Both the position numbers and the translations under genes were made by a program. A stretch of 52,629 nucleotides of DNA. It comes from an uncultured Bacillota bacterium. GTDB taxonomy: Bacteria > Bacillota_I > Bacilli_A > RF39 > UBA660. The number at the start of each line of letters is the position of its first letter. Positions within the stretch are counted from its first letter, which is position 1. Location of the stretch: assembly GCA_900318075.1 (NCBI GenBank), contig ONJI01000011.1, positions 1-52,629 of the forward strand, given 5' to 3'. Positions 2 through 50,452 of this stretch are shown here, in pieces. The notes under the pieces were generated by a model. The model ran no database searches, was not told the DNA's origin, and saw only the letters and a list, made by a program, of their open reading frames with translations.

Positions 2-519
2 AAAACTATTAATATATCTTATAAAGATGGTGAAAAGCATTATTTTATGCAGATATGTTTTGATAATTTTTCTTTAAAAAATAAACTAATTTCCATCTAT
101 AAACTAACAGATTTAGAAGATGGCCTAGTAGATGAAGAAAATGAAAATTTTGTAAAATATAGAATAAATCTAGCAAAATATACAAAAAGTATTATACTTT
201 AGATGAAAAGCTTACGAGATTTGAAAAAGCACTTGCTATTTTATCATTTAATAAAATAGAAGATCTTCGTAAAATATCTAAAGTAGATGAAATGCTTATG
301 AGAGCTGTCAAAAAAATTGAAGAACTTATAGATGATCCTGATATGGTACAGTACATCGATGTTGAAAAAGGTATGGAACTTGGTCGTAAAGAAGATATAA
401 AGGAAGCGGCTAAAAAAACTAGAATTGAAATGGCAAAGAAGATGCTTGAAGATAAATTAGATATAAGTGTTATATCCAAATATACTGGTTTATCAAAAGA
501 TGAAATCAAAAAAATGTAA
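2..519 (+). pseudogene. Rpn-family (PD-(D/E)XK, YhgA-like) recombination-promoting nuclease / putative transposase remnant; 5' end cut by window edge and frameshifted
   Basis: Frame 2 reads ...FVKYRINLAKYTKSIIL then TAG at 200-202. Frame 1 continues YKKYYTLDEKLTRFEKAL...IEMAKKMLEDKLDISVISKYTGLSKDEIKKM to the stop at 517-519. The shift lies in or near the A5 run at 184-188. The C-terminal part is paralogous to the intact ORF at 29716-30561 (IAMAKKMLAKGIKIKDIIEITGLTEQEL). Confidence 0.6.
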
Positions 520-538
520 TATTTGTTTATTACATTTT

Positions 539-1540
539 TTAATTGTTTTTTTCATAATTCCAAGCATCTTTTAGCATATCTTCTAAAGTATATTTAGCCT
601 TAAAGTTTAGTTCTTTTTTTGCTTTTTCAGGATCACTGTAGCAGGAATCAATGTCTCCACTTCTTCTTTCTACTATATTATACGGAACTTTAATGTTATT
701 TACTTTTTCAAATGTCTTTATTATTTCTAGCACGCTATAACCTGTTCCTGTTCCTAAATTATAAATATGCAGTCCTTTTTTATCTTTTTCTAATTTTTCA
801 ATTGCTTTAACATGACCTACTGCTAAATCAACGACATGGATATAATCTCTAACTCCAGTTCCATCTTTAGTGTCATAGTCATTTCCAAAGACGTTTAAAG
901 ATTTTAACTTTCCTTTAGCAACTTTGGCTATATATGGTACTAGATTAGCAGGAATACCATTAGGTTCTTCGCCAATTAGTCCAGACTTATGGGCTCCTAT
1001 TGGATTAAAATATCTCAGTATACATATATTCCATGTGTCATCACTTTTATACAAATCTTCGAGAATTTTTTCAACGAATAGTTTGCTTGTACCATATGGA
1101 TTTGTCGTACCGCCTATTTTTGAAGTTTCTTTAATGGGAACTTCTTCAGGATTTCCGTATACGGTAGCACTACTACTAAAAACTATGGTTTTTATGTCGT
1201 TTTCTTTCATAACGCTTAAAAGATTTAAAACGCTACTTACATTGTTGATATAGTATTCTAATGGCTTTTGAACTGATTCACCAACTGATTTATAAGCGGC
1301 AAAATCTATAACTGCTTTGATGTCATTTTCTTTAAATATGGTTTCAAGAATGTTTCGATCTATCATATCGCCTTCATAAAATTTAAAGGCTTTATTTGTT
1401 ATTTTTTTTATTTTTTCTAGCACTTCTTTTTTACTGTTACTAAAATTATCTAAACCAATTACTTCATAACCTTTTTCTAATAATTCTACTGCGGTGTGGC
1501 TACCTATATAACCACACATTCCCGTTACTAAAATTTTCAT
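539..1540 (-). CDS. galE: UDP-glucose 4-epimerase
   Basis: 333 aa. Rossmann motif VTGMCGYIGSH and catalytic YxxxK (PYGTSKLFVEK). Length and overall pattern are typical of GalE. Confidence 0.9.
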   Translation of the reverse strand: MKILVTGMCGYIGSHTAVELLEKGYEVIGLDNFSNSKKEVLEKIKKITNKAFKFYEGDMIDRNILETIFKENDIKAVIDFAAYKSVGESVQKPLEYYINNVSSVLNLLSVMKENDIKTIVFSSSATVYGNPEEVPIKETSKIGGTTNPYGTSKLFVEKILEDLYKSDDTWNICILRYFNPIGAHKSGLIGEEPNGIPANLVPYIAKVAKGKLKSLNVFGNDYDTKDGTGVRDYIHVVDLAVGHVKAIEKLEKDKKGLHIYNLGTGTGYSVLEIIKTFEKVNNIKVPYNIVERRSGDIDSCYSDPEKAKKELNFKAKYTLEDMLKDAWNYEKNN

Positions 1541-4618: not shown

Positions 4619-5560
4619 TTATTCGGTGTTTTTACATAGTTTTTGGGAGGCATTTAAAAATACTTCATCAACATCATAATTATCACAAACTGACAGTGAA
4701 ATAGTTCGATCTATTGCTTCACTCATTTCTTTGTTAATACTATAGTTTTCTCCAGCAAATTCTAATTTCATTATTCGGTCATCTAGACTACTAGATACTA
4801 ATTTTACATCATCATTCATAAAGCTCATCAAATTTTTATTTGGACTTAGGTCAACTACTAATTCATCTATTATAATATTTATTTTATCTCTAGTGTCGTT
4901 TAAATATTTAGTGACTGGAACATAATAATAGTTTTCATTTATCTGGTTTATATAATATATGGTAACGTCTGTTATATCTTTTGTACTGGTAAGGTCAAAT
5001 TCTTTATTTATTCCAAATGATCTATCTAAAGTACTTGGTAAATTTATTTTGGTCTTGGGAAGTTTTGTTAAAATATCCCCTTCCACATATATTATTATTT
5101 TATCTACTTTGTCGATCGATGTTAGTGTATAAACGATTGCTTCTATCATTTTTTCTTCTAAATTTTTGTCAACATCTAATAAATCTTTGGAAAAGTCCAC
5201 TTTTAATACATCGTGTTCATAACTTATGCTTAGGACTTCTGTATCTGGTGGGATTATGGCACTAAATCCACTAGGTACTTTACTATCCATTCCACCAACT
5301 GTAAGAATTTTTATCAGTTCTCTAGCGCGTTTTTCAATATTGTTTTCGGAAACAGGAGCTTCTGTTAAGGCAACATAACTATTTTTATCCATTAAAAATA
5401 TTGGTGTGCTGGTGACGTTTAAGTCGACATACTCTAGCTCTTCTTTAACCTTTAATTTTGGAGTATTTGAAGGTATTAAGTATATTAAAAGCATAGCAAA
5501 TAAGGCTGCTACTGATAGACATATCTTTCTCATTGACATTTTTTTTAGCATAACAATCAC
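4619..5560 (-). CDS. gerM: GerM-like germination/sporulation lipoprotein (GerMN domains)
   Basis: 313 aa with an N-terminal hydrophobic anchor and two GerMN-like halves (ELIKILTVGG...; LKVDFSKDL...). It sits next to gerE. Confidence 0.7.
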   Translation of the reverse strand: MIVMLKKMSMRKICLSVAALFAMLLIYLIPSNTPKLKVKEELEYVDLNVTSTPIFLMDKNSYVALTEAPVSENNIEKRARELIKILTVGGMDSKVPSGFSAIIPPDTEVLSISYEHDVLKVDFSKDLLDVDKNLEEKMIEAIVYTLTSIDKVDKIIIYVEGDILTKLPKTKINLPSTLDRSFGINKEFDLTSTKDITDVTIYYINQINENYYYVPVTKYLNDTRDKINIIIDELVVDLSPNKNLMSFMNDDVKLVSSSLDDRIMKLEFAGENYSINKEMSEAIDRTISLSVCDNYDVDEVFLNASQKLCKNTE

Positions 5561-5899: not shown

Positions 5900-5927
5900 A
5901 AAAACTTTCTTTTTATAGAAAGTTTTA
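5900..5927 (-). terminator. Hairpin terminator after the spoIIIAH-like gene
   Basis: Minus strand AAAACTTTCT-ATAAAA-AGAAAGTTTT(T) forms a perfect 10-bp stem that overlaps the stop codon. The T tract is short. Confidence 0.45.
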
Positions 5928-6431
5928 TTTTTGAAATTTGACTGAGATAGACATTTGGGTGTCAAAGTTAGCTTGTACTGTTCTCATTATTTTATTGGCT
6001 ATTTCAGTGTCATGTTTTTTACTGTCAATAACGACTGTAATGTTTTTGTCATCAATACTTACAAATGCTTTATAATTAAACTCTTTTTGAATTTGATTTT
6101 CAATTTTTTCTTCTTCACTTCTATTTTTATTTAATCTTTGAAGTTCTTCAAAGGCTTTGTTTTTATCTTCAGTGGATGTTTTTGAATCTGTAAGGGTCTT
6201 TTTAAGTTCGGTAATTTTATCTAACATTTTTTCTTCGGATTCTACTCTTAAGGCAACAAGTTCAGCACTTTCATCTGTATCTTCATTAATAGAAACAGTC
6301 CCTTCTTCTTTTTCTTTACTTCCATTGTTTGTGGCCATTAAAAGTTCACTTGGCATTGTTATATAATATACACTTAATACTAATATCAAACTAAATAAAG
6401 TCAAAAACCATAAGCTTCTTTTATTAATCAT
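5925..6431 (-). CDS. spoIIIAH: SpoIIIAH-like stage III sporulation protein
   Basis: 168 aa. The N-terminal TM segment WFLTLFSLILVLSVYYI closely resembles B. subtilis SpoIIIAH WLLTMLSLVVVLSVYYI. A charged linker follows, and the C-terminal module ends in ISVKF. Confidence 0.7.
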   Translation of the reverse strand: MINKRSLWFLTLFSLILVLSVYYITMPSELLMATNNGSKEKEEGTVSINEDTDESAELVALRVESEEKMLDKITELKKTLTDSKTSTEDKNKAFEELQRLNKNRSEEEKIENQIQKEFNYKAFVSIDDKNITVVIDSKKHDTEIANKIMRTVQANFDTQMSISVKFQK

Positions 6432-8257: not shown

Positions 8258-10009
8258 CTATTTTTTATTTTCTATTTTTTCTTTTAATTCTTTTATAAAA
8301 TCTTCTAATGATAATGTAGTAGTTTCCTTTGATGAGTATTTTCGATAACTTATGGTCTTTTCGTTTTGTTCTTTATCGCCCAATATTAATGTATACGGAA
8401 TTTTCTTTATTTGGCTTTCACGCATTTTATATGAAAGTTTTTCATCCCTACTATCAAGCGATACTCTAAAGTTTTCTTCTTTTAGTTTTTTCAATATTTC
8501 CTTGGCGTATTCTAGATGATATTCATTATTAACGGGAATTATATTAACCTGGTTTGGAGCAAGCCATAGTGGTAATACACCTTTGGTCTCTTCTAAATAA
8601 TAAGCCATGGTTCTATCAATAGATCCAAATACTGCTCTATGAAGTACTACTGGTGTTTTTTTACTTCCATCTTTATCAACGTATGTTAGATTAAATTTAG
8701 CTGGAAGGCAGAAGTCTAACTGGCATGTTGATAATGTAAATTCATTTCCAACAGCTGGTTTTACTTGAACATCTAGTTTAGGGCCATAAAAAGCGGCTTC
8801 TCCAATCTTTTCAACATAAGGTATTTTTAGATCGTTTAAAACATCTCTAAGTTTATCTTCGGCCATATTCCACATTTTATCGTCTGGGTGGTATTTAACT
8901 TTGTCTTCTGGATCTCTTAGTGATAATTCAAATTTATAGTTTGTAATACCCATTTCTCTATATACTTCTAGGATCAAATCAACAACGCCTTTAAATTCTG
9001 TCTCTATTTGTTCAGGAGTACAAAAGATGTGTGAATCATTTTGGCAAAATGTTCTAACTCTTTCGATTCCTTTAAGTGAACCACTTGTTTCAAATCTGGC
9101 ATCACGAGCTATCTCGGCTATTCTTACTGGTAAATCTCGATATGAATGTATTTCATTTCCGTAAATAACCATATGATGTGGGCAGTTCATGGGACGAATG
9201 ACGAATTCTTCGCCTTCAACTTCCATTTTAGGGAACATTGAATCTTGGTAGTGTTGCCAATGTCCACTTGTTTTATATAGTTCAACATTACCTAGTGGTG
9301 GGGTTAAAACGTGCAAATATCCTCGTTTTATTTCTTTGTTTCTAATATAGTTTTCAAGTTCATTCCACATAATAAATCCATTTGGAAGATACATTGGAAG
9401 GCCTTTTCCAACTAGATCATCAATTAGGAATATACCTAATTCTTTACCTAACTTACGATGATCTCTTTCTTTGGCTTCTTCAAGTTCTTTTAGATGTGCT
9501 TCTAAATCTTCTTTACTGTCAAAGCATATTCCATATATTCTTTGAAGTACTTTATTTTTTGAGTCACCTTTATAATAAGAACCACTAAACTTTAATAGTT
9601 TAAAGTTTTTACATTCTTTAACACTATCTACATGTGGTCCTCTACATAAGTCTGTGAAATCACCTTGGGTATAGCAGCTTATTGTCTCGTCTTCACTTAA
9701 ATTTTCAATTATGTCTATTTTATATGGATTATCCTTAAATCTTTCTAAAGCTTCTTCTTTTGATAGTTCTTCTCTATATATTCTTTTACCATCTTTAGCA
9801 AGCTTTTTCATTTCTTTAGTTATTTTTTCTAGGTCTTCGTCAGTTAGTGTATAGCCATCAAAATCTATATCGTAGTAAAATCCTTCCTCTATAACTGGTC
9901 CAACCCAAAGTTTAGCATCTTTGTATATGTGTTTAACTGCTTGAGCAAGCAAGTGTGCACAACTATGGTTTAATGTGTTTAGTCTTTTGTCTTCTTTAAT
10001 GTTTATCAT
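8258..10009 (-). CDS. thrS: Threonine--tRNA ligase lacking the N-terminal TGS domain
   Basis: 583 aa. It starts directly at the editing/SAD domain (HSCAHLLAQAVKHIY), about 60 aa shorter than canonical bacterial ThrRS. The class II core and anticodon-binding domain are present. Confidence 0.92.
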   Translation of the reverse strand: MINIKEDKRLNTLNHSCAHLLAQAVKHIYKDAKLWVGPVIEEGFYYDIDFDGYTLTDEDLEKITKEMKKLAKDGKRIYREELSKEEALERFKDNPYKIDIIENLSEDETISCYTQGDFTDLCRGPHVDSVKECKNFKLLKFSGSYYKGDSKNKVLQRIYGICFDSKEDLEAHLKELEEAKERDHRKLGKELGIFLIDDLVGKGLPMYLPNGFIMWNELENYIRNKEIKRGYLHVLTPPLGNVELYKTSGHWQHYQDSMFPKMEVEGEEFVIRPMNCPHHMVIYGNEIHSYRDLPVRIAEIARDARFETSGSLKGIERVRTFCQNDSHIFCTPEQIETEFKGVVDLILEVYREMGITNYKFELSLRDPEDKVKYHPDDKMWNMAEDKLRDVLNDLKIPYVEKIGEAAFYGPKLDVQVKPAVGNEFTLSTCQLDFCLPAKFNLTYVDKDGSKKTPVVLHRAVFGSIDRTMAYYLEETKGVLPLWLAPNQVNIIPVNNEYHLEYAKEILKKLKEENFRVSLDSRDEKLSYKMRESQIKKIPYTLILGDKEQNEKTISYRKYSSKETTTLSLEDFIKELKEKIENKK

Positions 10010-16109: not shown

Positions 16110-16135
16110 CGAGCTATTTTCTAGCTCGCTTTATT
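16108..16135. terminator. Bidirectional hairpin between convergent genes
   Basis: AGCGAGCTA-TTTTC-TAGCTCGCT followed by TTATT. It overlaps the last codons of the carboxypeptidase gene. Confidence 0.5.
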
Positions 16136-17295
16136 AATATGATTAATATGATTGTTAGTGGTATGACTATTATATTTGACTTTATAAAAGCTATTAAGCT
16201 GAAGCTGGGTCTATTTTTTAAATAGACGTTTTCTTTTCTTATTAGCTTATTTTGATAATATATTTTTAAAGTTCCTAGTTTGTTTTTAGTAAATGGTGTA
16301 ACTTCTTCTACTCCGTTATATTCGTATTTAATATCTTTCTTTTCATAATTGTTTGGTAGATATTTAATTATATCTTTTGAAGGATATAATTTTATTTTGG
16401 TCTCTTTTGAGTACTTTGTCTTTAGTGTTTTATAGCTTATATTTTTATCAACTATTTTTTGATTACTATAGTTTTGGATAAAATAGTCATAAATTATTTT
16501 GGCATCTTCTATATGGTGAGGCGCTTTTTTATCATATAAAGCTCCAGTAGTTATAAGTATATAATTTGTGCCATTTTCTTTAGCAATTGTTGCTAGACAT
16601 AAACCGGCTTTGGTTGTAGTTCCTGTTTTTCCGCCTAAAACATATGGAATATCAATATTGAAAGCTTTGGCGTTTTTTTGAATTGTACTTTTGAAGGTCA
16701 GTTTTCCATCAGTCGTCTTGTATTCTTTAGTTTTAATCATTTTTTTGAATGTCTCATTTTCTAAGGCTTTTTTAAAAATTATAAATAGATCTTTAACTGT
16801 TGAATAATTATTCTCGTCATCTAGGCCTATGACATTACTGAAATTTGTATTTTTTAAATTTAAATCTTGGACTTTTTTATTCATGAGAATAATAAATTCT
16901 TCTTCACTTCCTGCAATGTTTCTGGCTAGGGCTTTGGCGGCATCAGCCCCTGATGGCAGTAATAACCCATATAGTAAATCTTTATATGTTACTACTTCAC
17001 CTACTGTAAAGCCGGCTGTAACTAAATTATATTTTTGAACATTCTTAAAATCACTATTATTTATGATAATTTGTTTATCTAAGTCTTCAATATTTTCGAT
17101 ACTGACTAAGGCGGTCATTATTTTTGTCAAAGAAGCTATTTGGACTTTGTCATTAGAATTTTTTTCATATAATATTTCGTTATTATCTATATTATATAAA
17201 ATAGCATTTTTTGAACTTATATCTAATTCTATGGCCTTAATGTTTAATGGTATTAATAATATTAATATGATTAATAATTTTATGGTTTTTTTCAT
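16114..17295 (-). CDS. D-alanyl-D-alanine carboxypeptidase (S11, PBP5/DacB/DacF-like)
   Basis: Signal peptide, SxxK (ASLTKIM), KTG (GGKTGTT) and a C-terminal membrane anchor. The SxN motif reads SGA (LLPSGADAA) rather than SGN. Confidence 0.8.
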   Translation of the reverse strand: MKKTIKLLIILILLIPLNIKAIELDISSKNAILYNIDNNEILYEKNSNDKVQIASLTKIMTALVSIENIEDLDKQIIINNSDFKNVQKYNLVTAGFTVGEVVTYKDLLYGLLLPSGADAAKALARNIAGSEEEFIILMNKKVQDLNLKNTNFSNVIGLDDENNYSTVKDLFIIFKKALENETFKKMIKTKEYKTTDGKLTFKSTIQKNAKAFNIDIPYVLGGKTGTTTKAGLCLATIAKENGTNYILITTGALYDKKAPHHIEDAKIIYDYFIQNYSNQKIVDKNISYKTLKTKYSKETKIKLYPSKDIIKYLPNNYEKKDIKYEYNGVEEVTPFTKNKLGTLKIYYQNKLIRKENVYLKNRPSFSLIAFIKSNIIVIPLTIILIILIKRARK

Positions 17296-20321: not shown

Positions 20322-21245
20322 CTATTTTAGTTTATAAGTAGTCGTAAATATTCTATCGTCAGAGCAGTATTCTAAAACATATTTATCTTCTTTTCTGCAT
20401 ATAATTACACCAACGCTTTTATCATGAAAAACTTTCTTTATTTTTTTATCTACATAATTCATATATTTTTTAACTTGCCCTATATATTCTGCTTTCATTA
20501 CACTTACTTTTATCTCTATAATAATAAAACAATTAAATTCATAATTAAATAGAAGAAAATCTATATAGTGATAATTACTACCTATTTTTATTTTTACTTC
20601 ATGGTCTATATATGAAAATCCTTGACCTAATTCTTATAAAAAATTATCCATATCTTCTAATATAAACTGATGTAATGTATACTCACTTATATTATCATTT
20701 ACTTTATTTTTGGTTTTAATTATTATTGGATTTTTAATTAAGGTATTTACTTTAGGTTCTTCTAGTTCTTCTTTATAACCTATTCTTTCATATTCTTTTG
20801 ATTTAATTCTTTCTCTTAAATCTCTAACTGACAAATTATGACTTTCACAAATATAAATGTAGTATTTTATTTCATTTATATCATCTAGTTTTAACAGCTC
20901 TACATAATTACTCCATGTCAATTGGTGCGACATTGTCGCACCTTTTTGAATTATCAAATAAAACTTTCGCATTCTTTTTAACGACGACACATTATATCCC
21001 TTACCAAGTTCTTTTGTTAACTTTTCCGAATATTCCTTTATTAATTTATTTCCGTATTTAGCACGTGCTTCCCCACCTTGAGCTACTACTAATAATCTTC
21101 CTACTTCAAAATATGAATTTAAATCACTTTTATTTTTGGAATAATCCTTAACCTTTTTATATGCTTCGTTTTTTATTAATGTTGTCTTTATCTCGTTATA
21201 GTAGTTGATAGAAATCATCTCCTCATTTATTAATATACTAGACAA
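20322..21245 (-). pseudogene. YhcG-type (DUF1016) PD-(D/E)XK nuclease with an in-frame TAA
   Basis: The 203-aa N-terminal ORF ends ...EDMDNFL-TAA (20634-20636). The same frame continues ELGQGFSYIDHEVKIKIGSNYHYIDFLLFNYEFNCFIIIEIKVS...TTTYKLK to TAG at 20322-20324. The total of 924 nt is 308 codons. The D...E-x-K nuclease core lies after the stop. Confidence 0.7.
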
Positions 21246-21292: not shown

Positions 21293-21314
21293 TAAAAAAA
21301 CAGCGGGTGCTGTT
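21293..21314 (-). terminator. spoVA operon terminator
   Basis: Minus strand AACAGC-ACCC-GCTGTT followed by T7. Confidence 0.65.
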
Positions 21315-21393: not shown

Positions 21394-21744
21394 TTAATCT
21401 TTTGGTTCAAATATTAATGAGAAAAAGAAAGAAAATATAATAGCTGCACTGATGCCAGCTGAAGTTAGATTTAAGGTTCCATTAAATAATCCTAAAACTC
21501 CACCTTCGTTATAACCTTGTATGGCTCCATGAGTTAACATGTGTCCAAAGCTTGTTATCGGAACTAAAGCTCCGCCACCTGCCCACAAAACGATTTTATC
21601 GTAAATGTTAAATACATCTAAAAATGTTCCAACCACAACGAATATAACTGTAATATGGCCTGGGGTAAGATTTGTATTATCTAAAATTATTTGGCCTAAG
21701 GCACATACTAATCCGCAGAACAAAAAAGCATTTAAATATATCAC
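21394..21744 (-). CDS. spoVAE: Stage V sporulation protein AE (SpoVAEB-type)
   Basis: 116-aa polytopic membrane protein (GALVPITSFGH, GGVLGLF). It immediately follows spoVAD. Confidence 0.85.
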   Translation of the reverse strand: MIYLNAFLFCGLVCALGQIILDNTNLTPGHITVIFVVVGTFLDVFNIYDKIVLWAGGGALVPITSFGHMLTHGAIQGYNEGGVLGLFNGTLNLTSAGISAAIIFSFFFSLIFEPKD

Positions 21745-22724
21745 TATATCGCCTCCAAACTAACCGCATGAGCAATAGCTGGTATTGTTAGTTTTTGATT
21801 TGTCATTGTAGGGTTCATTAAGGCACCTGTTGCGACTAATAATACTTTTTTTAATTTTTTATTTTTCATTTGATTAAATATATAGCTATATGTAACTAGT
21901 GGTGCGCAAGCTGGACCTGATGCTCCGGCATATACTGGCTGATTTTCTACATCAAATATCATAGTTCCAGTATCATTATAATTTTTTAAATTTATATCGT
22001 ACTTTTCTTTCATATATTCTTTTAATATTTCTTTTCCATATATTCCAAGGTCTCCGGTTAAGACTAAGTCATAATAATCGATAGTTCTATTTGTATCTTT
22101 TAAATGAGTATAAATAGTATCCGCTGCCGCTTTTGCCATAACTGCGCCCATATGAAAAACATTGGTTGTCTTAGAATCTATTACTTTTCCAATTGTGCCT
22201 GATTCTAATTTTATTCCTTTTTTATTTTTAGATAGTAAAGCTGATGCTGCTCCAGTTGTGGTAAATGTTGTTGTTTTTGGTTTTGGACCGCCATATTCAA
22301 CTGGATATCTATACTGTTTTTCGGCTCCATTATTATGTGAGGAAGTAAATGTAATTATATTTTTAGCAAGTTTATTTTCAATAAAATTGGCGCCTAGTAT
22401 TAATCCTAAAGTACTGGTTGAACATGCAGCATATATTCCAATAAAGCTAGAATCTATTTTAGATGAGGCATAACTAGAAGCGACTATTTGATTTAATAAG
22501 TCTCCACCTATTAATATATCTACATCCTTTATATTACTTTTTGATTTTACCATGTCAATACTTTCATTTATCAGTTTTATCTCTGCTTGTTCCCAGGTTT
22601 TAGCTTTAAAATATAAATCCTCATATGTTTTATCAAAGTATTTTTTTAATGGGCCACTAGCTTCATATGGTCCTGTTATAGTTGATGTTTCATTTATGTA
22701 TACATTATTATATTTTATTGTCAT
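21744..22724 (-). CDS. spoVAD: Stage V sporulation protein AD
   Basis: 326 aa, thiolase-like fold (YAACSTS, GASGPACAP). Its start and stop overlap the neighbouring genes. Confidence 0.88.
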   Translation of the reverse strand: MTIKYNNVYINETSTITGPYEASGPLKKYFDKTYEDLYFKAKTWEQAEIKLINESIDMVKSKSNIKDVDILIGGDLLNQIVASSYASSKIDSSFIGIYAACSTSTLGLILGANFIENKLAKNIITFTSSHNNGAEKQYRYPVEYGGPKPKTTTFTTTGAASALLSKNKKGIKLESGTIGKVIDSKTTNVFHMGAVMAKAAADTIYTHLKDTNRTIDYYDLVLTGDLGIYGKEILKEYMKEKYDINLKNYNDTGTMIFDVENQPVYAGASGPACAPLVTYSYIFNQMKNKKLKKVLLVATGALMNPTMTNQKLTIPAIAHAVSLEAI

Positions 22725-23158
22725 ACGAGTCCCACCAACGTTCTAATTAAACTAAAGACAAAACTTCCAATAATTCCAAATATTATTACGGCTCCTGATA
22801 GTTTTAACATATTAGCGCCTAATCCTGTTACTAATCCTTCTTTACGGTATTCTAATGCAGCGCTTTGAGTAGCATGAGCAAATCCGGTAATTGGAATAAT
22901 TAGCCCGCATTTACAAAAATTTACCCACTTATCGAAAAAGCCTAAACTTGTAAGTAGACAGCTTAAAAATATTAATGTAATTAACATGCATACTGTTGCT
23001 TCTTTAGCTGGAACTGACATATAGCTTTGGTATAATTCTATTAAAAGTTCTCCTATTATTCCCATCATTCCTCCAGTTATAAAAGCAATAGCGGCATTAT
23101 AAAAGACTTCTTCTTTTGGCATATGTTTATCTACTATTTTTTGATATTCATCTTTCAT
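22721..23158 (-). CDS. spoVAC: Stage V sporulation protein AC
   Basis: ATG at 23158 is preceded by GGAGG plus 6 nt. MKDEYQKIVDKHMPKE...AFITGGMMGIIGE is typical of SpoVAC. The longer ORF-track start lacks an RBS. Confidence 0.88.
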   Translation of the reverse strand: MKDEYQKIVDKHMPKEEVFYNAAIAFITGGMMGIIGELLIELYQSYMSVPAKEATVCMLITLIFLSCLLTSLGFFDKWVNFCKCGLIIPITGFAHATQSAALEYRKEGLVTGLGANMLKLSGAVIIFGIIGSFVFSLIRTLVGLV

Positions 23159-23175: not shown

Positions 23176-23205
23176 TATTATGGAAGTTTTTACTTTTTTC
23201 TATAC
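23176..23205 (-). promoter_or_regulatory. Candidate forespore (sigma-G/sigma-F type) promoter of spoVAC-AD-AE
   Basis: Minus strand GTATA-N18-CATAATA fits GhATr-N17/18-CATxhTA. It lies in the 59-nt gap between the pilin-like gene and spoVAC. Confidence 0.4.
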
Positions 23206-23217
23206 AAAAAATAACAC

Positions 23218-23583
23218 TTATAAACAAGTGTTATTTTCATTATACTCATATTTATATTTGTTACTAGTAAAGGTAATGATAATGTAGCCTTCTATATTTT
23301 CATCAGATTTTTTTGGGTTTTTTATATCACTGTTTGTTAGCAAACCAGCTTGTTTTAACTCGTTTATGGCTAAGCATTTTTTTTCACCGTCATTAGGAAG
23401 CTCTTTTGAATTTTTTGCCATATATGTTCTAGCGGCATTTTTTATGTGTTCTATCTGTTTTTCATAGGCTTTATCTTTAGAACTATTTATAACACTACCT
23501 ACAGCTGGTACTGTAATCATGGTTATTATTCCGATGATTGTAATTACGGCTATAAGTTCAATTAAAGTAAATCCTTTTTTCAT
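23218..23583 (-). CDS. Prepilin-type N-terminal cleavage/methylation domain protein (pseudopilin/ComGC-like)
   Basis: MKKG|FTLIELIAVITIIGII is a class III signal peptide with Gly-1, Phe+1 and Glu+5. The small globular domain carries two Cys. Confidence 0.8.
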   Translation of the reverse strand: MKKGFTLIELIAVITIIGIITMITVPAVGSVINSSKDKAYEKQIEHIKNAARTYMAKNSKELPNDGEKKCLAINELKQAGLLTNSDIKNPKKSDENIEGYIIITFTSNKYKYEYNENNTCL

Positions 23584-23625
23584 ATTCTCACCCTATCATC
23601 ATTATAGATTAATAGGGTCATGTTG

Positions 23626-24270
23626 TCAATTGAAGGTTTTTTTTAATTTTGTTAATACTTTTTTTTCCTTTCTAGAGATATCTACTTGAGATAGTCCTAG
23701 TTTTTTGGCCACTTCAGTTTGGGTTAAATCCTCAAAGTATCTTTTTATCATTATAGTTCTTTCTGGTTCATTCAAGCTTTCAATTTCTTTTTTTAAAGCT
23801 ATTATAGTGTCATAGTCCATTTCTTTATCAGCGATAATTTCATGCATAGATAAATCGTCAGAAAAGATTTCATCCATACTATATGGATCTGTATAGTTAA
23901 GTGTTTGTTCAATTATTTCTTCATCTATCTCTAGAAAATTACTTAATTCTTTATTTGATGGAATATGCATGAGACTTTGAGCTAAATGATTTTTGGCAAT
24001 CTCTATTTTAGTTTTTAGTCTTGATAAATCTCTACTTAATTTAATGGTGTGATCTTCTCTTACAAATTTGCTCATTTCTCCATAGATGTATTGATAGGCG
24101 TAGCTTGTAAATTTTGTACCTTTTGTTTCATCGTAGTTTTTATAAGCCTCGATCATACCAATACACCCTACTTGAAATAAGTCCTCTTTACTTTTGTATT
24201 TTGAAAATTTACTTGCAATACTATAAATAAAACTTTCATTTTTTAATATAATTTGAGTTATTTCCTCCAT
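23626..24270 (-). CDS. sigF: Group 3 sporulation-type sigma factor (SigF by synteny)
   Basis: ATG at 24270 follows AGGAGGAG. Regions 2-4 are recognisable (FQVGCIGMIEAYKNYD, YAYQYIYGEMSKFVRE, LTQTEVAKKLGLSQVDISR). It sits between spoIIAA and the spoVA genes as in Bacillus. Confidence 0.75.
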   Translation of the reverse strand: MEEITQIILKNESFIYSIASKFSKYKSKEDLFQVGCIGMIEAYKNYDETKGTKFTSYAYQYIYGEMSKFVREDHTIKLSRDLSRLKTKIEIAKNHLAQSLMHIPSNKELSNFLEIDEEIIEQTLNYTDPYSMDEIFSDDLSMHEIIADKEMDYDTIIALKKEIESLNEPERTIMIKRYFEDLTQTEVAKKLGLSQVDISRKEKKVLTKLKKTFN

Positions 24271-24280
24271 ATCTCCTCCT

Positions 24281-24592
24281 TTAAGCGCCAATTAAATTAA
24301 CTGCAGTCATTTCGTCAGTAACATATTTTAAATCACCTATTAGACTTAATTGATTAGGATTTGCACATATGAAACTTTTATCGCATGTTTTATAACATTT
24401 TTTTAGTGTCTTTATTCCACTTTCATCAATATAATTAAGGTTTTGAATATTTAAGACAATATTTTGAATTCCAACATTATTGATTAGTGTTATTACTTCT
24501 TCATTTATCTTACTTCGTGTTTCTTTTGTAAGTCTGCCAAATAATCTGACAAATAAAATGCCCATTTTAGAATCTATATCAATATCTAACAT
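24281..24592 (-). CDS. spoIIAA: STAS-domain anti-sigma-factor antagonist (SpoIIAA-like)
   Basis: 103 aa. IVLNIQNLNYIDESGIKTL aligns to B. subtilis SpoIIAA IVLNLEDLSFMDSSGLG. Confidence 0.75.
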   Translation of the reverse strand: MLDIDIDSKMGILFVRLFGRLTKETRSKINEEVITLINNVGIQNIVLNIQNLNYIDESGIKTLKKCYKTCDKSFICANPNQLSLIGDLKYVTDEMTAVNLIGA

Positions 24593-24680
24593 ATCATCAC
24601 CTTCTAAAGTGTAGCATTTATTAAATTTAAATTATATAGTTTCGACAAAACTAGAATTTTCTTTTAATTTAAAAAGAAGA

Positions 24681-26876
24681 TTACTCAGAATCTTCTTTCT
24701 TTTCTAGTTTAACTAAAACTTCTCTCGGTTTAGAACCGTTTGATGGTCCTATTATTCCTCTTTCTTCTAAAAGATCAATACATCTAGCAGCTCTATTATA
24801 ACCTAATCTAAATCTTCTTTGAAGAAGAGAGGCACTAGCTTTACCTTGGGTTATAACAAATTCTCTAATTTCATTATAAAGTGGTTCTTCGTGTTCATCA
24901 CTACTATCTAGCATGGTAGTTGCTCCTTTATCTTCATCAGAAAGAGTTAAAGATTTATCGTACATAGCTTTTTGCTGGGAAATAGTATAATCTACTACCT
25001 TTTTTATTTCCTCATCGCTGATAAATGTACCTTGAACTCTTATTGGAATGTTTTCGCCTTGTGGCAAGAATAACATGTCACCTTTACCGAGTAATTTTTC
25101 GGCTCCACTCATGTCTAGAATTGTTCTAGAGTCGATACTACTAGATACAGCAAATGATATTCTAGATGGAATATTGGCTTTTACAACTCCGGTAATGACA
25201 TCGGTACTTGGTCTTTGTGTAGCTACTATTAAATGTATTCCAGCAGCTCTTGCCATTTGGGTTATTCGCATTATTGAATCTTCAACTTCTTTAGCAGCTA
25301 CTAGCATCAAGTCAGCAAGTTCATCGATGATTACTACGATATAAGGTAATTTTTGTATTTGTTCATCTTCATCTAATTTTTCGTTTTTCTTTTCAACGTA
25401 GGCATTATAACCGGCAATATTTTTTGTGCCACTTTCTTCAAATAAGTCATATCTATCTTCCATTATTTTTACTATTTTTTGAAGAACGATATTAGCTTTT
25501 TTAGGATCAGTCACTACTGGTGTTAGAAGGTGTGGTACACCATTATACATTGAAAGTTCTACTTTTTTAGGGTCAACTAGAACTAGTTTTACTTCGTCTG
25601 GTTTAGTACGCATTAAGATTGATGTAATCATACTATTTATACAAACTGATTTACCAGAACCAGTAGATCCAGCTACTAGTAAATGGGGAGTTTTATCTAT
25701 TTCACAAAAGATTGATTCACCCATTATACTTTTTCCTAAAGTGACTAATAATTTACTATTTTCTTTATCTTTAGGCACAGCTGTCAAAATTTCTCTTACA
25801 GAAACTGGTGTGGTTGTCTTATTAGGCAGTTCAATACCGACGGTTTTTTTACCAGGTATTGGAGCTTGAATTCTGACATCTTTAGCTCCTAAATCTAAAG
25901 CGATTTCTTTATTTAAAGCGGTTATTTTAGAAAGTCTGGTTCCTGATTTAACTTCAAGTTCATACTGCGTTACTGATGGTCCAATATGTGCGGTAGCAAC
26001 TTTTACTTCAACTCCAAAATCTCTAGTTACTTTTTCGATAGCTGCAGCATTTTGATTAATTGCTTCTTTATTAGCTTTAGTGGCTGCGGCTTTATTTGCA
26101 GATGGTTTATTTAATAGATCAATTGGCGGTTTTTGATAACCTTTGGTATCCATGTATTCTTCAGGCTCTTTTTCTTCTGTCTTTGGAACGTTGCTTTCAA
26201 GCTCATCCATTGATGATATAACTAATTTTTTATTGTTATCTTCCTCGTATTTTTCTTCAGCTTCTTCAACGGCTTCTCTTATTTTTACATTGTGTTTAAT
26301 ATCTTTTAATCCAGCCATTTTTTCTTTCATATATGTTATGGCATCATAAATTGATACTCCTGTAAACATAATAGTTCCGCATATTATTAAGGCGGTACAT
26401 ACAACTTTAGTTCCCTCGATTGTAAGCAGTTTATATCCAATTACTGAGAATATAGCGCCAATCATTCCACCGCCTTGAATTGCTTCAGTATGCTTTACAA
26501 AGCCCATGAGATTATTTATTGTTTCAGTAAATATTTTACCGGCTTCGAGGTCTTTACCTGCTAGTTCTTTAATATATTCGATATGTGATAGTGTTAAAAT
26601 GCCAATCATTAAAATATAAAGTCCGACTAAATGTGATGTTAAAAAGTCAACTTTTTCTCTTTTTATCATCATATATATACCAGCAGCTCCAACGCATAAA
26701 AGAGGAACAATGTACCAACTGCCAGCCAAAAATCCTGCAAAGCCTTTAAATATATCAGCGGCAATGCCAAATGGGCAGCAGCCAATTATTGCGATTAAAA
26801 GTAGTAAAATTCCTTGTAATTCTACACTATATGATGATTCTTTTTTTGATTGTTTTCTTTTTTTTCTTTTTGCCAT
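24681..26876 (-). CDS. ftsK: DNA translocase FtsK/SpoIIIE
   Basis: N-terminal TM helices, linker, motor domain (Walker A GSTGSGKS, Walker B VVIIDELADL) and a C-terminal gamma wHTH (LLQRRFRLGYNRAARCID). Confidence 0.93.
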   Translation of the reverse strand: MAKRKKRKQSKKESSYSVELQGILLLLIAIIGCCPFGIAADIFKGFAGFLAGSWYIVPLLCVGAAGIYMMIKREKVDFLTSHLVGLYILMIGILTLSHIEYIKELAGKDLEAGKIFTETINNLMGFVKHTEAIQGGGMIGAIFSVIGYKLLTIEGTKVVCTALIICGTIMFTGVSIYDAITYMKEKMAGLKDIKHNVKIREAVEEAEEKYEEDNNKKLVISSMDELESNVPKTEEKEPEEYMDTKGYQKPPIDLLNKPSANKAAATKANKEAINQNAAAIEKVTRDFGVEVKVATAHIGPSVTQYELEVKSGTRLSKITALNKEIALDLGAKDVRIQAPIPGKKTVGIELPNKTTTPVSVREILTAVPKDKENSKLLVTLGKSIMGESIFCEIDKTPHLLVAGSTGSGKSVCINSMITSILMRTKPDEVKLVLVDPKKVELSMYNGVPHLLTPVVTDPKKANIVLQKIVKIMEDRYDLFEESGTKNIAGYNAYVEKKNEKLDEDEQIQKLPYIVVIIDELADLMLVAAKEVEDSIMRITQMARAAGIHLIVATQRPSTDVITGVVKANIPSRISFAVSSSIDSRTILDMSGAEKLLGKGDMLFLPQGENIPIRVQGTFISDEEIKKVVDYTISQQKAMYDKSLTLSDEDKGATTMLDSSDEHEEPLYNEIREFVITQGKASASLLQRRFRLGYNRAARCIDLLEERGIIGPSNGSKPREVLVKLEKKEDSE

Positions 26877-29715: not shown

Positions 29716-30561
29716 TTATACTTTCAATTTTACTAATTCTTGTTCAGTTAAACCTGTTATCTCTATAATGTCTTTTATCTTTATTCCTTTAGCAAGCATC
29801 TTTTTAGCCATAGCTATTTTATTTTGAGTTATACCTTTTTCAATACCTTTTTTAAGACCTGTATTATATCTTTGATTGGCCCATTTCTCGGTTTCGTCTT
29901 CTATAACAAGTTCTTTGGCTACGTCTGGATCTAAGTTTAAGTATTTTACTTTATTTGATATTTCTACCATTATTTCATCACCTTTACTTATTTTATCCAT
30001 CTCTTCATAAGTTTGGGCCGCGAGTAACATCATAAATGGATCTTCTTTCTTTTCTTCTTTATTGTACCACTTATCATCAAAATAATCCATATTGATATGT
30101 ACTATCTCAAATATATCATTATATATTTTATTATTTGTATTATTTTCGGTTATATAGAATTTTATTATCTTTTTGTCTTTTATATCATAATCTAGATATT
30201 TTTTTAAATTCCATGTCAAATTTAACTGCACGTGTTTTACTATATTTATATAACTTTCTTTTTGTTTTAAATTACTGCTTATTAGTTTACAAAAATATAA
30301 TAGATTTCTATTAAATACTTCTTCTTTGTAATTATTATTTACTTCGACATTTATTATTCCTTCTTCTGTATATACTATCAAATCTAAAAACATTTTTCTT
30401 TCTTTTTTATTTTCTATATTCATTTCATTATTATTTACAATTAAGACTTTATCTACTTTTATGTTTAACGATACCTCTAACAATTTTTTTATTCTCTCTT
30501 CTGTTATAAAGACATTTTTAAATATGATATCGTTTCTTAAAAATTGGGGTTTTAACTTCAT
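29716..30561 (-). CDS. Rpn-family recombination-promoting nuclease / putative transposase (PD-(D/E)XK)
   Basis: 281 aa. The N-terminus DIIFKNVF...FLDLIVYTEEGIINVEVN carries a D...E-x-N/K-like core. The C-terminal helical tail is shared with the remnant at 2-519. Confidence 0.7.
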   Translation of the reverse strand: MKLKPQFLRNDIIFKNVFITEERIKKLLEVSLNIKVDKVLIVNNNEMNIENKKERKMFLDLIVYTEEGIINVEVNNNYKEEVFNRNLLYFCKLISSNLKQKESYINIVKHVQLNLTWNLKKYLDYDIKDKKIIKFYITENNTNNKIYNDIFEIVHINMDYFDDKWYNKEEKKEDPFMMLLAAQTYEEMDKISKGDEIMVEISNKVKYLNLDPDVAKELVIEDETEKWANQRYNTGLKKGIEKGITQNKIAMAKKMLAKGIKIKDIIEITGLTEQELVKLKV

Positions 30562-40215: not shown

Positions 40216-41064
40216 CTACTTTCTTGCTCTTGGATGGGCTTTTAGGTATACTTCTCTTAATCTTTCGTTAGAAATGTGGGTATATATCTGGGTTGTTGAA
40301 AGATTTTCGTGTCCAAGTAAATCACCTACACTTTTTAAATCGGCTCCATCGTTTAATAAGTGAGTAGCATATGTGTGTCTTAGGGTATGGGGAGTCACAT
40401 GCACGTCAAGTCTAGCTTTTTTTGAATTATCATCGACGATTTTTCTGACTATTCTTTCGTTTAATTTATTACCGTGCTTATTCGTAAATAAATACTCGTG
40501 CGTTTCTTTTTCAAGATATTTATTAAGCAAATTTTCACATTTTGTTCCATAATATACATATCTTTCTTTATTGCCTTTTCCTAATATTAGGATTTTTCTT
40601 TCTTTAAAATTAATATCTTTTATTTTGATATTTGTAAGCTCGCTTACTCGGCAACCGGATGAATATAACATCTCTAGTATTAAGGCATCTCTTAAACCGT
40701 ATTTGTTATTAATGTCTGGCGCTTCTAACAATCTTTCTAAGTCGTCATAGTTTAGGTAATTTGGTAATGTTTTTTCTACTTTTGGATTGCTTATTAAGCT
40801 CATTGGATTATCATCAATGATGTTTTCGCTTTCTAAATATTTGAAATAACTTTTTAGGCTACTTACTTTTCTAGATATTGTGCGAGAAGTGTATTTGTTT
40901 TCATATAGTTTTTTTAAATAGTTTCTGATTAGGTCAATAGTTATTTTATCTTTTCCTACAAATTCATAAAAGTTAGTTAGGTCAATTTTATAATTTTTGA
41001 CTGTATGTTCTGAAAAATTTTTTTGATATTTTAAATAGTTTAAAAATTTATCTATATTTTTCAT
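40216..41064 (-). CDS. xerC: Tyrosine recombinase XerC/XerD family
   Basis: Core-binding plus catalytic domain: R (SGCRVSEL), HTLRHTYATHLL, GHENLSTTQIYTHI. ATG 41064 lies behind AGGTGG; the ORF track used GTG 41073. Confidence 0.85.
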   Translation of the reverse strand: MKNIDKFLNYLKYQKNFSEHTVKNYKIDLTNFYEFVGKDKITIDLIRNYLKKLYENKYTSRTISRKVSSLKSYFKYLESENIIDDNPMSLISNPKVEKTLPNYLNYDDLERLLEAPDINNKYGLRDALILEMLYSSGCRVSELTNIKIKDINFKERKILILGKGNKERYVYYGTKCENLLNKYLEKETHEYLFTNKHGNKLNERIVRKIVDDNSKKARLDVHVTPHTLRHTYATHLLNDGADLKSVGDLLGHENLSTTQIYTHISNERLREVYLKAHPRARK

Positions 41065-41147
41065 GTGTCCCACCTAATTTAATTATAGCACGTATGGTGT
41101 TCTTAGTAAATTAATGAATTTTAATATAGTTTTAGCTTTTTTGCATT

Positions 41148-48861: not shown

Positions 48862-48885
48862 ATAAAAAAACTGGAAGCCCAGTTT
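48862..48885 (-). terminator. Terminator after the PP2C gene
   Basis: Minus strand AAACTGG-GCTT-CCAGTTT followed by T7. Confidence 0.6.
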
Positions 48886-50452
48886 ATTTTGTAAGTACTT
48901 TGTTTTTTGAATAATTTGGTAAATTAATCACTATTACAGAAATATTATCTTCTGTTTTAACTAACCATTCAGTATATTTTTTACTTAACGCATCTTCTAT
49001 CATTGTACTTGTAGGAATATTTTCCTTAAAATATGATTTAAAAGTTTCTTCACTTACTAAATCGGTAATTCCATCACTTGATAGAATTATTTTTTGACCA
49101 ATGTTATCTATAATATTTATATGAAGTTCATCATTATAACCGGCTCCTATAGCAGCCGTTATAGTATTATTCCAAGGATTATATCTAGCTTCTTCATAGT
49201 CTAGTCCTTTAGAATCAGAGTCTAAGGTTGTAAGTAAGACTAAATCATCAGTTTCTTTATCATAGGTATAGGCAGCCGAATCACCAATATTGGCAATTAC
49301 TGTTTTATCATTTACTGTGATTGATAAAACCATTGTAGTATAACTACCATGATATTTTTGATTTATTAAACTATCAATTTGAGAAATTTTATATTTCAGT
49401 AGTTTAATTAATAAATCAATATCGTTTAAAATTTCATCTGGAATAATTTCAAACCAATCTTTGATTTCTTCTATGAGTAATTTACTAGCTTCTTCTCCTT
49501 TTTCAGAGCCACCTGCTCCATCAGCGACCATATTTAAAAAGCAGTTTTCATTTTTAACTATACTTAAAACAGCGTCTTGCTGGGGCATTTCTGGTTTGCT
49601 TTCATATCCTCTATCTGTAGATACTTCGATTTTGCCTGAAAGCAGGCTGGCGTTAAATGAATCTAATAGTTTTATTCCATTTCCATTACTTAAAATTTCA
49701 TATGCATTTTTAGTTATTTTAAGCCCACTTTCTTTTAAAACTTCAGTTACATCTATATTTTTAATATATTTTTTTATTAATTCTTCTAAGATTTTTTCAG
49801 TTTGTTTTATATTAAGTTTGTTATACATAGTTATATCTTTAGTTTTTAATAAATCAATTAATATTATAGGTATATCATGCATTAGCTCGCGATAATTATT
49901 TGTTTTTACGGAGGTAACTTTTTTTTCAGCTTGGCCATAAAAAACATTATTTTTATGAACTTTTATATTACCTGTTTGATCAACATCTACATTAATATCA
50001 TCTATTTTATAACTTCCCGGCATATATACTGGGTAAATAATTATTTTTAAATCTTCTACGTTTTTAGGCAAGTTTTCTTCTATATTTATATGCGAAAAAT
50101 CGTCTGCGTGGAGTAACCAATCTGAGCCTATAATGTTAATTCTATTATCGTTTACAAAAATTGCGTAATTTCCTGAAAACATAAATTTATCTATTTCATC
50201 TAATTTTGATAAATAGTCGTTATATATAATTTCTAGGCATTTTTCTGGCGTTATGGTTATATGTTCTTTTATCAAGAAATTTTTAAAATAGTTATCTTGG
50301 AATAAATAAGAAATGATATCATTATTATTTTTTATTTTGTTTAATGTGCTATCTAATTCATTTAAAATTATTTGTGCGAGTTTTTTCTCAAGGTCATCAC
50401 CCGGATGATTTAGTTTATAGCCAATAATTGCTTTTTTTAATAATTTTTCCAT
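48884..50452 (-). CDS. PP2C-family Ser/Thr phosphatase with an unknown ~290-aa N-terminal region
   Basis: The C-terminal half carries the PPM motifs MVADGAGGSEKGEEAS, IANIGDSAAY, LSSDGITD and EDNISVIV. I recognise nothing in the N-terminal half, and no TM segments are present. Confidence 0.75.
   Translation of the reverse strand: MEKLLKKAIIGYKLNHPGDDLEKKLAQIILNELDSTLNKIKNNNDIISYLFQDNYFKNFLIKEHITITPEKCLEIIYNDYLSKLDEIDKFMFSGNYAIFVNDNRINIIGSDWLLHADDFSHINIEENLPKNVEDLKIIIYPVYMPGSYKIDDINVDVDQTGNIKVHKNNVFYGQAEKKVTSVKTNNYRELMHDIPIILIDLLKTKDITMYNKLNIKQTEKILEELIKKYIKNIDVTEVLKESGLKITKNAYEILSNGNGIKLLDSFNASLLSGKIEVSTDRGYESKPEMPQQDAVLSIVKNENCFLNMVADGAGGSEKGEEASKLLIEEIKDWFEIIPDEILNDIDLLIKLLKYKISQIDSLINQKYHGSYTTMVLSITVNDKTVIANIGDSAAYTYDKETDDLVLLTTLDSDSKGLDYEEARYNPWNNTITAAIGAGYNDELHINIIDNIGQKIILSSDGITDLVSEETFKSYFKENIPTSTMIEDALSKKYTEWLVKTEDNISVIVINLPNYSKNKVLTK

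Follow-up and report, generated by a model that had tools for sequence, protein, structure and literature searches.

Our analysis showed that, in a stretch of 52,629 nucleotides (nt) from an uncultured Bacillota bacterium of the order RF39 (assembly GCA_900318075.1, contig ONJI01000011.1; hereafter the window), a gene for a STAS-domain protein derived from SpoIIAA is followed directly by a gene for a sigma factor derived from SigF, with no spoIIAB gene between them. The same pair without SpoIIAB is found in 12 diverged lineages (the window and the related loci L007, L009, L011-L014, L018, L066 and L091-L093). The partner switch formed by SpoIIAA, SpoIIAB and SpoIIE is the textbook mechanism by which SigF activity is restricted to the forespore, and to our knowledge it is considered universal elsewhere among endospore formers. 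The locus is probably best explained as the streamlined spoIIA-spoVA region of an AT-rich, small-genome lineage of Bacilli (the window has about 29% G+C, and relatives occur on contigs of 1.32-1.36 Mb), in which the sigma factor would be controlled without a kinase. The elements of the operon, with protein lengths in amino acids (aa), are the following.

24641-24649, minus strand: Spo0A-box-like motif TTTGTCGAA within the block CTAGTTTTGTCGAA, identified by the motif and its positional conservation.
24608-24616, minus strand: extended -10-like element TGcTACACT, a putative promoter of the STAS-sigma operon, recognised by eye.
24281-24592, minus strand: STAS gene, SpoIIAA-derived, 103 aa, without the conserved phosphosite (Pfam STAS; AlphaFold2, AF2).
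24422-24424, minus strand: codon of Glu57, which aligns with Ser58 of SpoIIAA (alignment).
24271-24280, minus strand: 10-nt spacer between the STAS and sigma genes, holding an AGGAGG ribosome-binding site (sequence).
23626-24270, minus strand: SigF-derived sigma gene, 214 aa, without the N-terminal segment of SigF and SigG (NCBIfam; tree).

The STAS gene ends with a TAA codon at 24283-24281 and the sigma gene begins with an ATG at 24270-24268, leaving a gap of 10 nt. The first-pass annotation of this DNA, made from the sequence alone, had described the two genes as overlapping; this is true only of the mechanically called open reading frame (ORF) with its TTG start at 24291, and homologues point to the ATG at 24270 as the start. 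Its further statement that no room is left for spoIIAB between the two genes is correct, the gap being 10 nt long and holding the AGGAGG site.

An identical layout was seen on six metagenomic contigs of the same species. Across the 12 lineages, in which the relatives do share the SpoIIAB-less pair as the first-pass annotation had proposed to check, the identity of the sigma factor to that of the window drops to about 35-40% in the most distant relatives, and where coordinates were read the STAS and sigma genes are separated by 8-11 nt or overlap by 4 nt. In a 13th lineage (L015) the sigma gene and its upstream box are kept and the STAS gene is absent; a 6S RNA gene (9702-9886, plus strand; 57.8 bits in Rfam) lies upstream of the sigma gene there, in the place of the STAS gene. 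The order spoIIAA-spoIIAB-sigF was found in 59/59 of the other loci that have SpoIIAB, which come from Bacillus, Paenibacillus, Sporolactobacillus, Clostridia and one metagenome-assembled genome of Coprobacillaceae (L033). Since the sigma factors of the spoIIAB-less loci are monophyletic in a neighbour-joining tree (bootstrap 100/100), a single ancestral loss of spoIIAB is the simplest history.

The STAS protein has kept the SpoIIAA fold and is under purifying selection. It scores 40 bits against Pfam STAS (cut-off 22.6) and 35.2 bits against the SpoIIAA equivalog TIGR02886, below the cut-off of 114.75. Its AF2 model (predicted local distance difference test 94, predicted template-modelling score 0.86) has a beta-beta-alpha-beta-alpha-beta-alpha-alpha topology, and the five best matches of this model in the PDB are all SpoIIAA chains of G. 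stearothermophilus in complex with SpoIIAB, with template-modelling (TM) scores of 0.85-0.89 and 28% identity; chain B of 1TH8/1THN is among the matches in this range, so that the protein has the fold of SpoIIAA. Ratios of non-synonymous to synonymous substitution (dN/dS) among five lineages were similar for the three proteins compared, at 0.07-0.25 for the STAS protein, 0.07-0.44 for the sigma factor and 0.06-0.21 for SpoVAD, with dS saturated.

The phosphosite of SpoIIAA is no longer conserved in this family. The first-pass annotation had placed Glu57 at the position of the phosphorylated serine, and both the codon and the alignment agree: Glu57 aligns with Ser58 of B. subtilis SpoIIAA, anchored by the invariant Asp56 and Gly59 (Asp57 and Gly60 of SpoIIAA), and lies in the first turn of helix alpha2 in the AF2 model. 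The window thus reads D-E-S-G-I-K at the site of the conserved D-S-S-G-x-G. Canonical SpoIIAA encoded beside SpoIIAB reads F-M-D-S-S-G-(L/I/V)-G here, and Ser58 is present in 59/59. When 1.84 billion representative proteins were searched with a profile, 190 clusters were returned at E <= 1e-10, the best 151 of which were used together with the window's own protein. Among these 151 STAS proteins, SpoIIAA position 57 is Asp in 144 and position 60 is Gly in 147, and position 58 is occupied by more than 15 different residues (K25, E22, L16, I15, S14, M8, D8, N8, Y7 and others), with Ser or Thr in 17/151 (11%). Position 59, which is Ser58 of the window's protein, is just as variable, and the phosphosite has thus not shifted to that residue; nor do relatives share the D-E-S-G motif as such, both of its middle positions being variable. 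Even the 18 closest clusters carry E, K, D, S, Y or L at the Ser58 position, and relatives that are 83-85% identical (P0003-P0005) have Lys where the window has Glu.

In the alignment, Glu57 is one incidental state of an unconstrained site. The first-pass annotation had called it a phosphomimetic residue, but the spread of residues at position 58 means that it was not selected as one: Lys replaces it in relatives of 85% identity, and Glu is found in only 22/151 proteins, next to K25, L16, I15 and S14. The change is not confined to this residue. Twelve positions that are near-invariant in canonical SpoIIAA (E21, D23, H25, R31, F55, S58, S59, G62, L65, G66, R67 and G95) are unconstrained in the clade, and the structural core (L14, L18, G20, L22, D57 and G60) is kept. 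The twelve lost positions probably lie on the side of SpoIIAA that faces SpoIIAB in their complex, in the beta2-alpha1 loop and at the starts of helices alpha2 and alpha3. The phosphosite has stopped mattering, which is what one would expect if the whole organism, rather than this operon alone, had lost the kinase.

The sigma factor is strongly diverged. Regions 2, 3 and 4 are all recognised (PF04542, PF04539 and PF04545 pass), and the NCBIfam families rank as SigBFG (169 bits), SigF (162), SigG (133) and SigB (104), all below their cut-offs, which are 234 for SigBFG and 321.45 for the SigF equivalog TIGR02885. The neighbour-joining tree separates SigG from SigF plus the clade with a bootstrap of 100/100, and the clade nests among SigF; the tree included no SigB or FliA outgroup, families that the NCBIfam scores rank lower. 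The earlier assignment of this factor to the SigF type is thus upheld, as the split from SigG leaves it together with SigF and not outside SigF/SigG. What sets the clade apart is the lack of about 30 N-terminal residues common to SigF and SigG, before region 2.1: of 129 clade sigmas, 99-100% have a gap opposite positions 22-30 of B. subtilis SigF. The many further substitutions in these proteins are too unspecific to favour a mechanism. In L014, only 1.6 kb separate the STAS and sigma genes from a sigK gene (24-731, minus strand), the product of which scores 301.7 bits against an equivalog cut-off of 298.65. This score shows that the late mother-cell sigma factor SigK is well conserved in the clade, and the divergence of the SigF-like factor is therefore not just a matter of general fast evolution.

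Pfam scans of the 52.6-kb window, which covered the ORFs of at least 90 aa left without annotation by the precomputed gene calls, turned up no HATPase and no SpoIIAB-like ORF, and B. subtilis SpoIIAB used as a phmmer query had no match in the window. A 59-sequence hidden Markov model of SpoIIAB, run with filters off, detected nothing in 261 kb around spoIIAB-less operons (best match 12 bits). The observation in the first-pass annotation that no HATPase ORF lies nearby held in the Pfam, phmmer and SpoIIAB-model scans of the window. A SpoIIE/RsbU-type PP2C phosphatase was not found in the window either. The sole PP2C protein encoded there (48884-50452, minus strand, 522 aa) is soluble, with an N-terminal part of 287 aa without assignment and the PP2C domain at its C-terminus. 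We considered it as a remnant of SpoIIE and rejected it, as it has no transmembrane region and no SpoIIE family match, its best matches being Stp1, PphA and PstP; no Ser/Thr kinase gene adjoins it. Of the components of a partner-switching module (STAS protein, GHKL kinase and PP2C phosphatase), the window therefore lacks the kinase and a phosphatase of the SpoIIE/RsbU type, and the kinase is also lacking in the related loci.

We infer that the phosphorylation-driven partner switch, with its kinase SpoIIAB and its phosphatase SpoIIE, has probably gone from the clade genome-wide. The gene loss itself is not new: the loss of spoIIAB and spoIIE in the order RF39 has been reported in a gene census (PMC10868615, Microb Genom 2024), which predicts a "markedly different ... 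regulation". The passages of the census on which we draw deal with the presence or absence of KEGG orthologues only, and they do not describe the structure of the operon, the retained SpoIIAA-like gene, the lost phosphosite or the truncated sigma factor. The anatomy of the operon, the loss of the phosphosite and the shortened sigma factor are, as far as those passages go, what is added here. Our search of the literature found no report of this loss of spoIIAB besides the census (PMC10868615).

Expression of the operon may still depend on Spo0A. The motif TTTGTCGAA occurs in a single copy in the window, and presumably corresponds to a Spo0A box, as it fits the B. subtilis consensus. One copy of the motif would not be significant by itself, and it is the conservation of its position that is. 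The CTAGTTTTGTCGAA block recurs 5' of the STAS gene in nearly all lineages; TGNCGAA is found at about the same place in L007 (as TGGCGAA), L011, L013, L014, L018 (as TGACGAA), L066, L091, L092 and L093, and the motif of L009 and L012, TGTCGAT, differs by one base. In L015 a TTTGTCGAA box lies about 55 nt before the start of the sigma gene that lacks a STAS neighbour. A TGnTA...T element was recognised by eye at a constant distance from the 0A box in L091, L011, L012, L013 and L007, and no sigma-H-type promoter was seen 5' of the STAS gene when one was looked for by eye. We infer that transcription of the STAS-sigma operon is likely to be Spo0A-dependent. Downstream, the first-pass annotation had described a sigma-G-like promoter before spoVAC. 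This element looks SigF/SigG-like and is conserved among relatives: the form G(T/C)ATA-N17/18-CA(T)AATA is kept in L091, L092, L093 and L007, and a CATA(A/C)TA -10 element precedes spoVAC in L009, L012, L013 and L018. By the B. subtilis consensus, it is a putative forespore promoter of the SigF/SigG type.

The locus shares with the spoIIA operon of B. subtilis (spoIIAA-spoIIAB-sigF) a SpoIIAA-fold STAS gene in first place and a SigF-type sigma gene in last, a Spo0A box upstream and spoVA genes with a forespore-type promoter downstream, and SpoIIAA chains are the best structural matches of its STAS protein. Unlike in B. subtilis, spoIIAB is missing from the window, the phospho-Ser and eleven other invariant positions are not conserved, the sigma factor is about 30 N-terminal residues shorter and the window revealed no phosphatase of the SpoIIE type. 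The promoter of B. subtilis spoIIA is a sigma-H promoter, whereas that of the window looks like an extended -10 element combined with a 0A box.

These features point to a history in which one ancestor lost spoIIAB and was left with a SpoIIAA-derived STAS gene beside a shortened SigF-derived sigma gene, after which the phospho-Ser and the eleven other canonical SpoIIAA positions ceased to be conserved. Phosphorylated Spo0A (Spo0A~P) may still induce the operon via the 0A box located before the extended -10 promoter, so that the sigma factor would be made together with roughly equimolar amounts of the STAS protein, and would then read forespore-type promoters such as the GTATA-N18-CATAATA before spoVAC. 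The least certain step is the role of the STAS protein itself; we tentatively suggest that it may act directly on the sigma factor, free of phosphorylation, as a stoichiometric brake or a chaperone. The kinase-independent control of the forespore sigma factor that was proposed in the first-pass annotation finds support in the conservation of this SpoIIAB-less, SpoIIAA- and SigF-derived operon across a large clade.

Several points weigh against a streamlined, kinase-free operon. The genome-wide absence of SpoIIAB and SpoIIE is argued from the lost conservation of the phosphosite and its neighbours together with the RF39 census, as our scans covered the loci only. The promoter assignments are based on sequence motifs, the link between the STAS protein and the sigma factor on operon structure, and sporulation in these organisms is presumed from their genes. 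L015 has the sigma gene and the 0A box without the STAS gene, which suggests that the STAS protein may be dispensable. In a contrast of alignment positions, no strongly conserved new polar surface was seen in the clade STAS proteins, and their isoelectric point (8.9 vs 6.4 in canonical SpoIIAA) is a weak hint, too unspecific to indicate a mechanism. The more specific proposal, that the SpoIIAA/SpoIIAB/SpoIIE switch has been replaced throughout the clade by a two-protein module, in which direct binding of the truncated SigF lets the STAS protein serve as a brake that needs no phosphorylation, seems rather doubtful to us. Release in the forespore would then depend on a cue that involves no phosphatase, such as an unstable STAS protein together with the transient asymmetry of the chromosome.

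It is also conceivable, if unlikely, that the STAS protein is an anti-anti-sigma factor for a non-kinase anti-sigma factor encoded elsewhere, in a form of control free of phosphorylation. Such STAS antagonists exist: in M. tuberculosis, RsfA counteracts the anti-sigma-F factor UsfX without phosphorylation control, and, like RsfA, the protein described here has the SpoIIAA fold without a phosphorylatable serine. The retention of the STAS fold under purifying selection would agree with this, and the structures matched by the STAS model include the complex of UsfX with RsfB. RsfA acts on the SpoIIAB-like UsfX, whereas no such partner was seen for the STAS protein, and no candidate was found in or near the operon in the 12 lineages. 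Cys66 and Cys70 could support redox control of the kind known for RsfA, but we dismissed this for the clade as a whole, both residues being confined to a narrow subclade.

We regard it as improbable that the STAS and sigma genes are relics, decaying or co-opted in a lineage that no longer sporulates. In favour of such decay are the reduced genomes (contigs of 1.32-1.36 Mb among the relatives), the scores of both proteins far below the family cut-offs and the lost STAS gene of L015, and multiple losses of sporulation in these orders are described in the passages of the census on which we draw (PMC10868615). The evidence on the other side is broader: dN/dS is low for the STAS protein, the sigma factor and SpoVAD, if with saturated dS; the ORFs are intact in every lineage examined; the Spo0A box and the forespore-type promoter are conserved; and GerM-like, SpoIIIAH-like and spoVA genes are present, with SigK passing its equivalog cut-off in L014.

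More improbable still is an intact but dispersed partner switch, with SpoIIAB and SpoIIE encoded elsewhere and SpoIIAB still antagonised by the STAS protein. Our SpoIIAB scans covered loci rather than whole genomes, and a PP2C phosphatase gene does lie 24 kb away in the window; yet DSSGxG, ELDHH, G66-R67 and G95, which are invariant in 59/59 canonical proteins, are unconstrained in the 151 clade proteins, which would be unexpected with the same partner, and the phosphosite changes from E to K between proteins that are 85% identical. The window's PP2C protein is soluble and resembles Stp1 and PphA rather than SpoIIE, and the census, in the passages on which we draw, reports the loss of spoIIAB and spoIIE in RF39 (PMC10868615). 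That Glu57 was selected as a phosphomimetic, fixing the SpoIIAA-like protein in its "phosphorylated" state, is hardly credible, because although the window's Glu aligns with Ser58, the clade has Glu in 22/151 and Asp in 8/151 with Lys (25), Leu (16) and Ile (15) just as common, and the near relatives P0003-P0005 have Lys.

On the minus strand, the genes from 26876 to 21394 follow the order FtsK/SpoIIIE, STAS, sigma, prepilin, spoVAC, spoVAD and spoVAE. The features that flank the STAS-sigma pair are the following.

24681-26876, minus strand: gene for a DNA translocase of the FtsK/SpoIIIE family (Pfam FtsK_alpha, FtsK_SpoIIIE and FtsK_gamma), directly 5' of the STAS gene.
23601-23629, minus strand: promoter of the pilin gene, TTGACA-17-TATAAT, sigma-A-type (12/12 consensus match).
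23218-23583, minus strand: gene for a prepilin-type protein, 121 aa, beginning MKKG-FTLIE (PF07963, TIGR02532).
23206-23235, minus strand: terminator-like hairpin with a 10-bp stem, AATAACACTT/AAGTGTTATT, followed by a T-run (RNA fold).
23176-23205, minus strand: forespore-type (SigF/SigG-like) promoter GTATA-N18-CATAATA, 5' of spoVAC (motif).
22721-23158, minus strand: spoVAC, 145 aa from the ATG at 23158 (PF03862, 103 bits; TIGR02838, 153 bits).
21744-22724, minus strand: spoVAD (PF07451, 402 bits; NF006160, 408 bits, cut-off 402).
21394-21744, minus strand: spoVAE, of the spoVAEB type (TIGR02839, 135 bits, cut-off 131).
21299-21314, minus strand: terminator-like site closing the spoVA unit (consensus scan).

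The prepilin gene had been described in the first-pass annotation as the third cistron of the operon, in the slot of spoVAA/AB. The ORF at 23583-23218 is real: MKKG is followed by FTLIELIAVITIIGII, with Gly-1, Phe+1, Glu+5 and a hydrophobic helix, which is a class III signal peptide, and the protein scores 26.4 bits against PF07963 (cut-off 21.2) and 32.6 against TIGR02532 (cut-off 16.3). It falls short of the named pilin equivalogs ComGC and GspG (ComGC 35.4 bits, cut-off 75; GspG 39.5, cut-off 88.85), and its matches in the PDB are limited to the N-terminal helix. It is also true that no terminator-like site was found between the sigma and pilin genes by a consensus scan, and that the window has no pilus-assembly gene. 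What had been overlooked is a promoter with a perfect sigma-70 consensus, whose -35 hexamer contains the stop codon of the sigma gene; this promoter, including the spacer length of 17 nt, is kept in each of the six lineages that were compared (the window, L007, L011 and L091-L093), with TTGACT in L011. At the other end, the stop codon of the pilin gene lies inside a hairpin found in 6/6 lineages, with stems that differ yet remain complementary, and with a T-run in 5/6; the consensus scan missed this terminator, the stem of which has only 2 G-C pairs.

The pilin gene is moreover limited to a subclade, being present in the window, L001-L008, L011 and L091-L093 and absent from L009, L012-L014 and L018, in which the STAS and sigma genes are followed directly by spoVAC, spoVAD and spoVAE. 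With its own conserved promoter and terminator, it is thus not an integral third cistron. Nor is there a spoVAA/AB slot being filled, since sigF is linked directly to spoVAC in canonical loci as well: in L040, L052/L053 (Sporolactobacillus), L063 (Clostridium tepidiprofundi) and L078 (Alicyclobacillus), the order sigF-spoVAC-spoVAD-spoVAE is likewise found without spoVAA/AB, with a sigF-spoVAC distance of 69-136 nt. These canonical loci keep spoIIAB and the DSSG motif, whereas the window's subclade has the pilin unit between the sigma gene and spoVAC. Judging from its signals and distribution, the pilin gene is an autonomous unit, inserted later between sigF and spoVAC and lying outside the switch. 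Read-through from the STAS promoter would still cover it, and would end at the pilin terminator.

The start of spoVAC is the ATG at 23158, the TTG start of the mechanically called ORF being incorrect, and a protein of 145 aa is also called in L001. Public SpoVAC calls of 147 aa cross an in-frame TGA, presumably as a result of a code-4 gene model, and public sigma calls of 220-222 aa (L002 10323-10991, L004, L006 and L091) likewise read through a TGA and were rejected as not real. The long ORFs of the window are intact under code 11, and TGA is therefore a stop codon here.

The FtsK/SpoIIIE gene is also found directly upstream of the STAS-sigma pair in L007, L091, L092 and L093. In deeper relatives, the position immediately 5' of the STAS gene is occupied by a protein family with a signal peptide, a C-terminal membrane anchor and an N-terminal YYS-YS-FS motif (L009 8347-9906, L011 1367-2548, L012 7985-9565, L013 2718-4598 and L014 1197-2360), for which no Pfam or NCBIfam match was found. 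A protein built in the same way takes this slot in L018 and L066, and the window has the FtsK/SpoIIIE gene there instead. Elsewhere in the window, a GerM-like gene with two Germane domains (4619-5560, minus strand) lies beside a SpoIIIAH-like gene (5925-6431, minus strand), and a GerM homologue is found near the operon in L013 (9480-10439); a minimal SpoIIQ/SpoIIIAH/GerM set has been described for Erysipelotrichia, and the GerM/SpoIIIAH pair fits it. The window also has a gene for an S11 D-Ala-D-Ala carboxypeptidase (16114-17295), an ordinary PD-(D/E)XK (Rpn-type) transposase-like gene (29716-30561, minus strand) and an ordinary tyrosine recombinase gene (XerC/D-like; 40216-41073, minus strand). 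A gene of the DUF1016/YhcG family (20322-21245, minus strand) is split into ORFs of 203 aa and 58 aa in the window, L002, L004 and L006, whereas L001 and L003, which belong to the same species, have an intact copy of 307 aa; it looks like a strain-level pseudogene.

The clade described here, which amounts to 190 or more protein clusters when grouped at 50% identity, keeps the sigma factor, the SpoIIAA-like protein, the Spo0A box and spoVA. If these organisms sporulate, the compartment-specific activation of their first forespore sigma factor must come about in another way. If true, such a circuit would be minimal and simpler, and would serve as a natural experiment to learn for what purpose a partner switch is required. 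It also bears on the prediction, from marker genes, of sporulation, and hence of transmission, in uncultured gut Bacilli.

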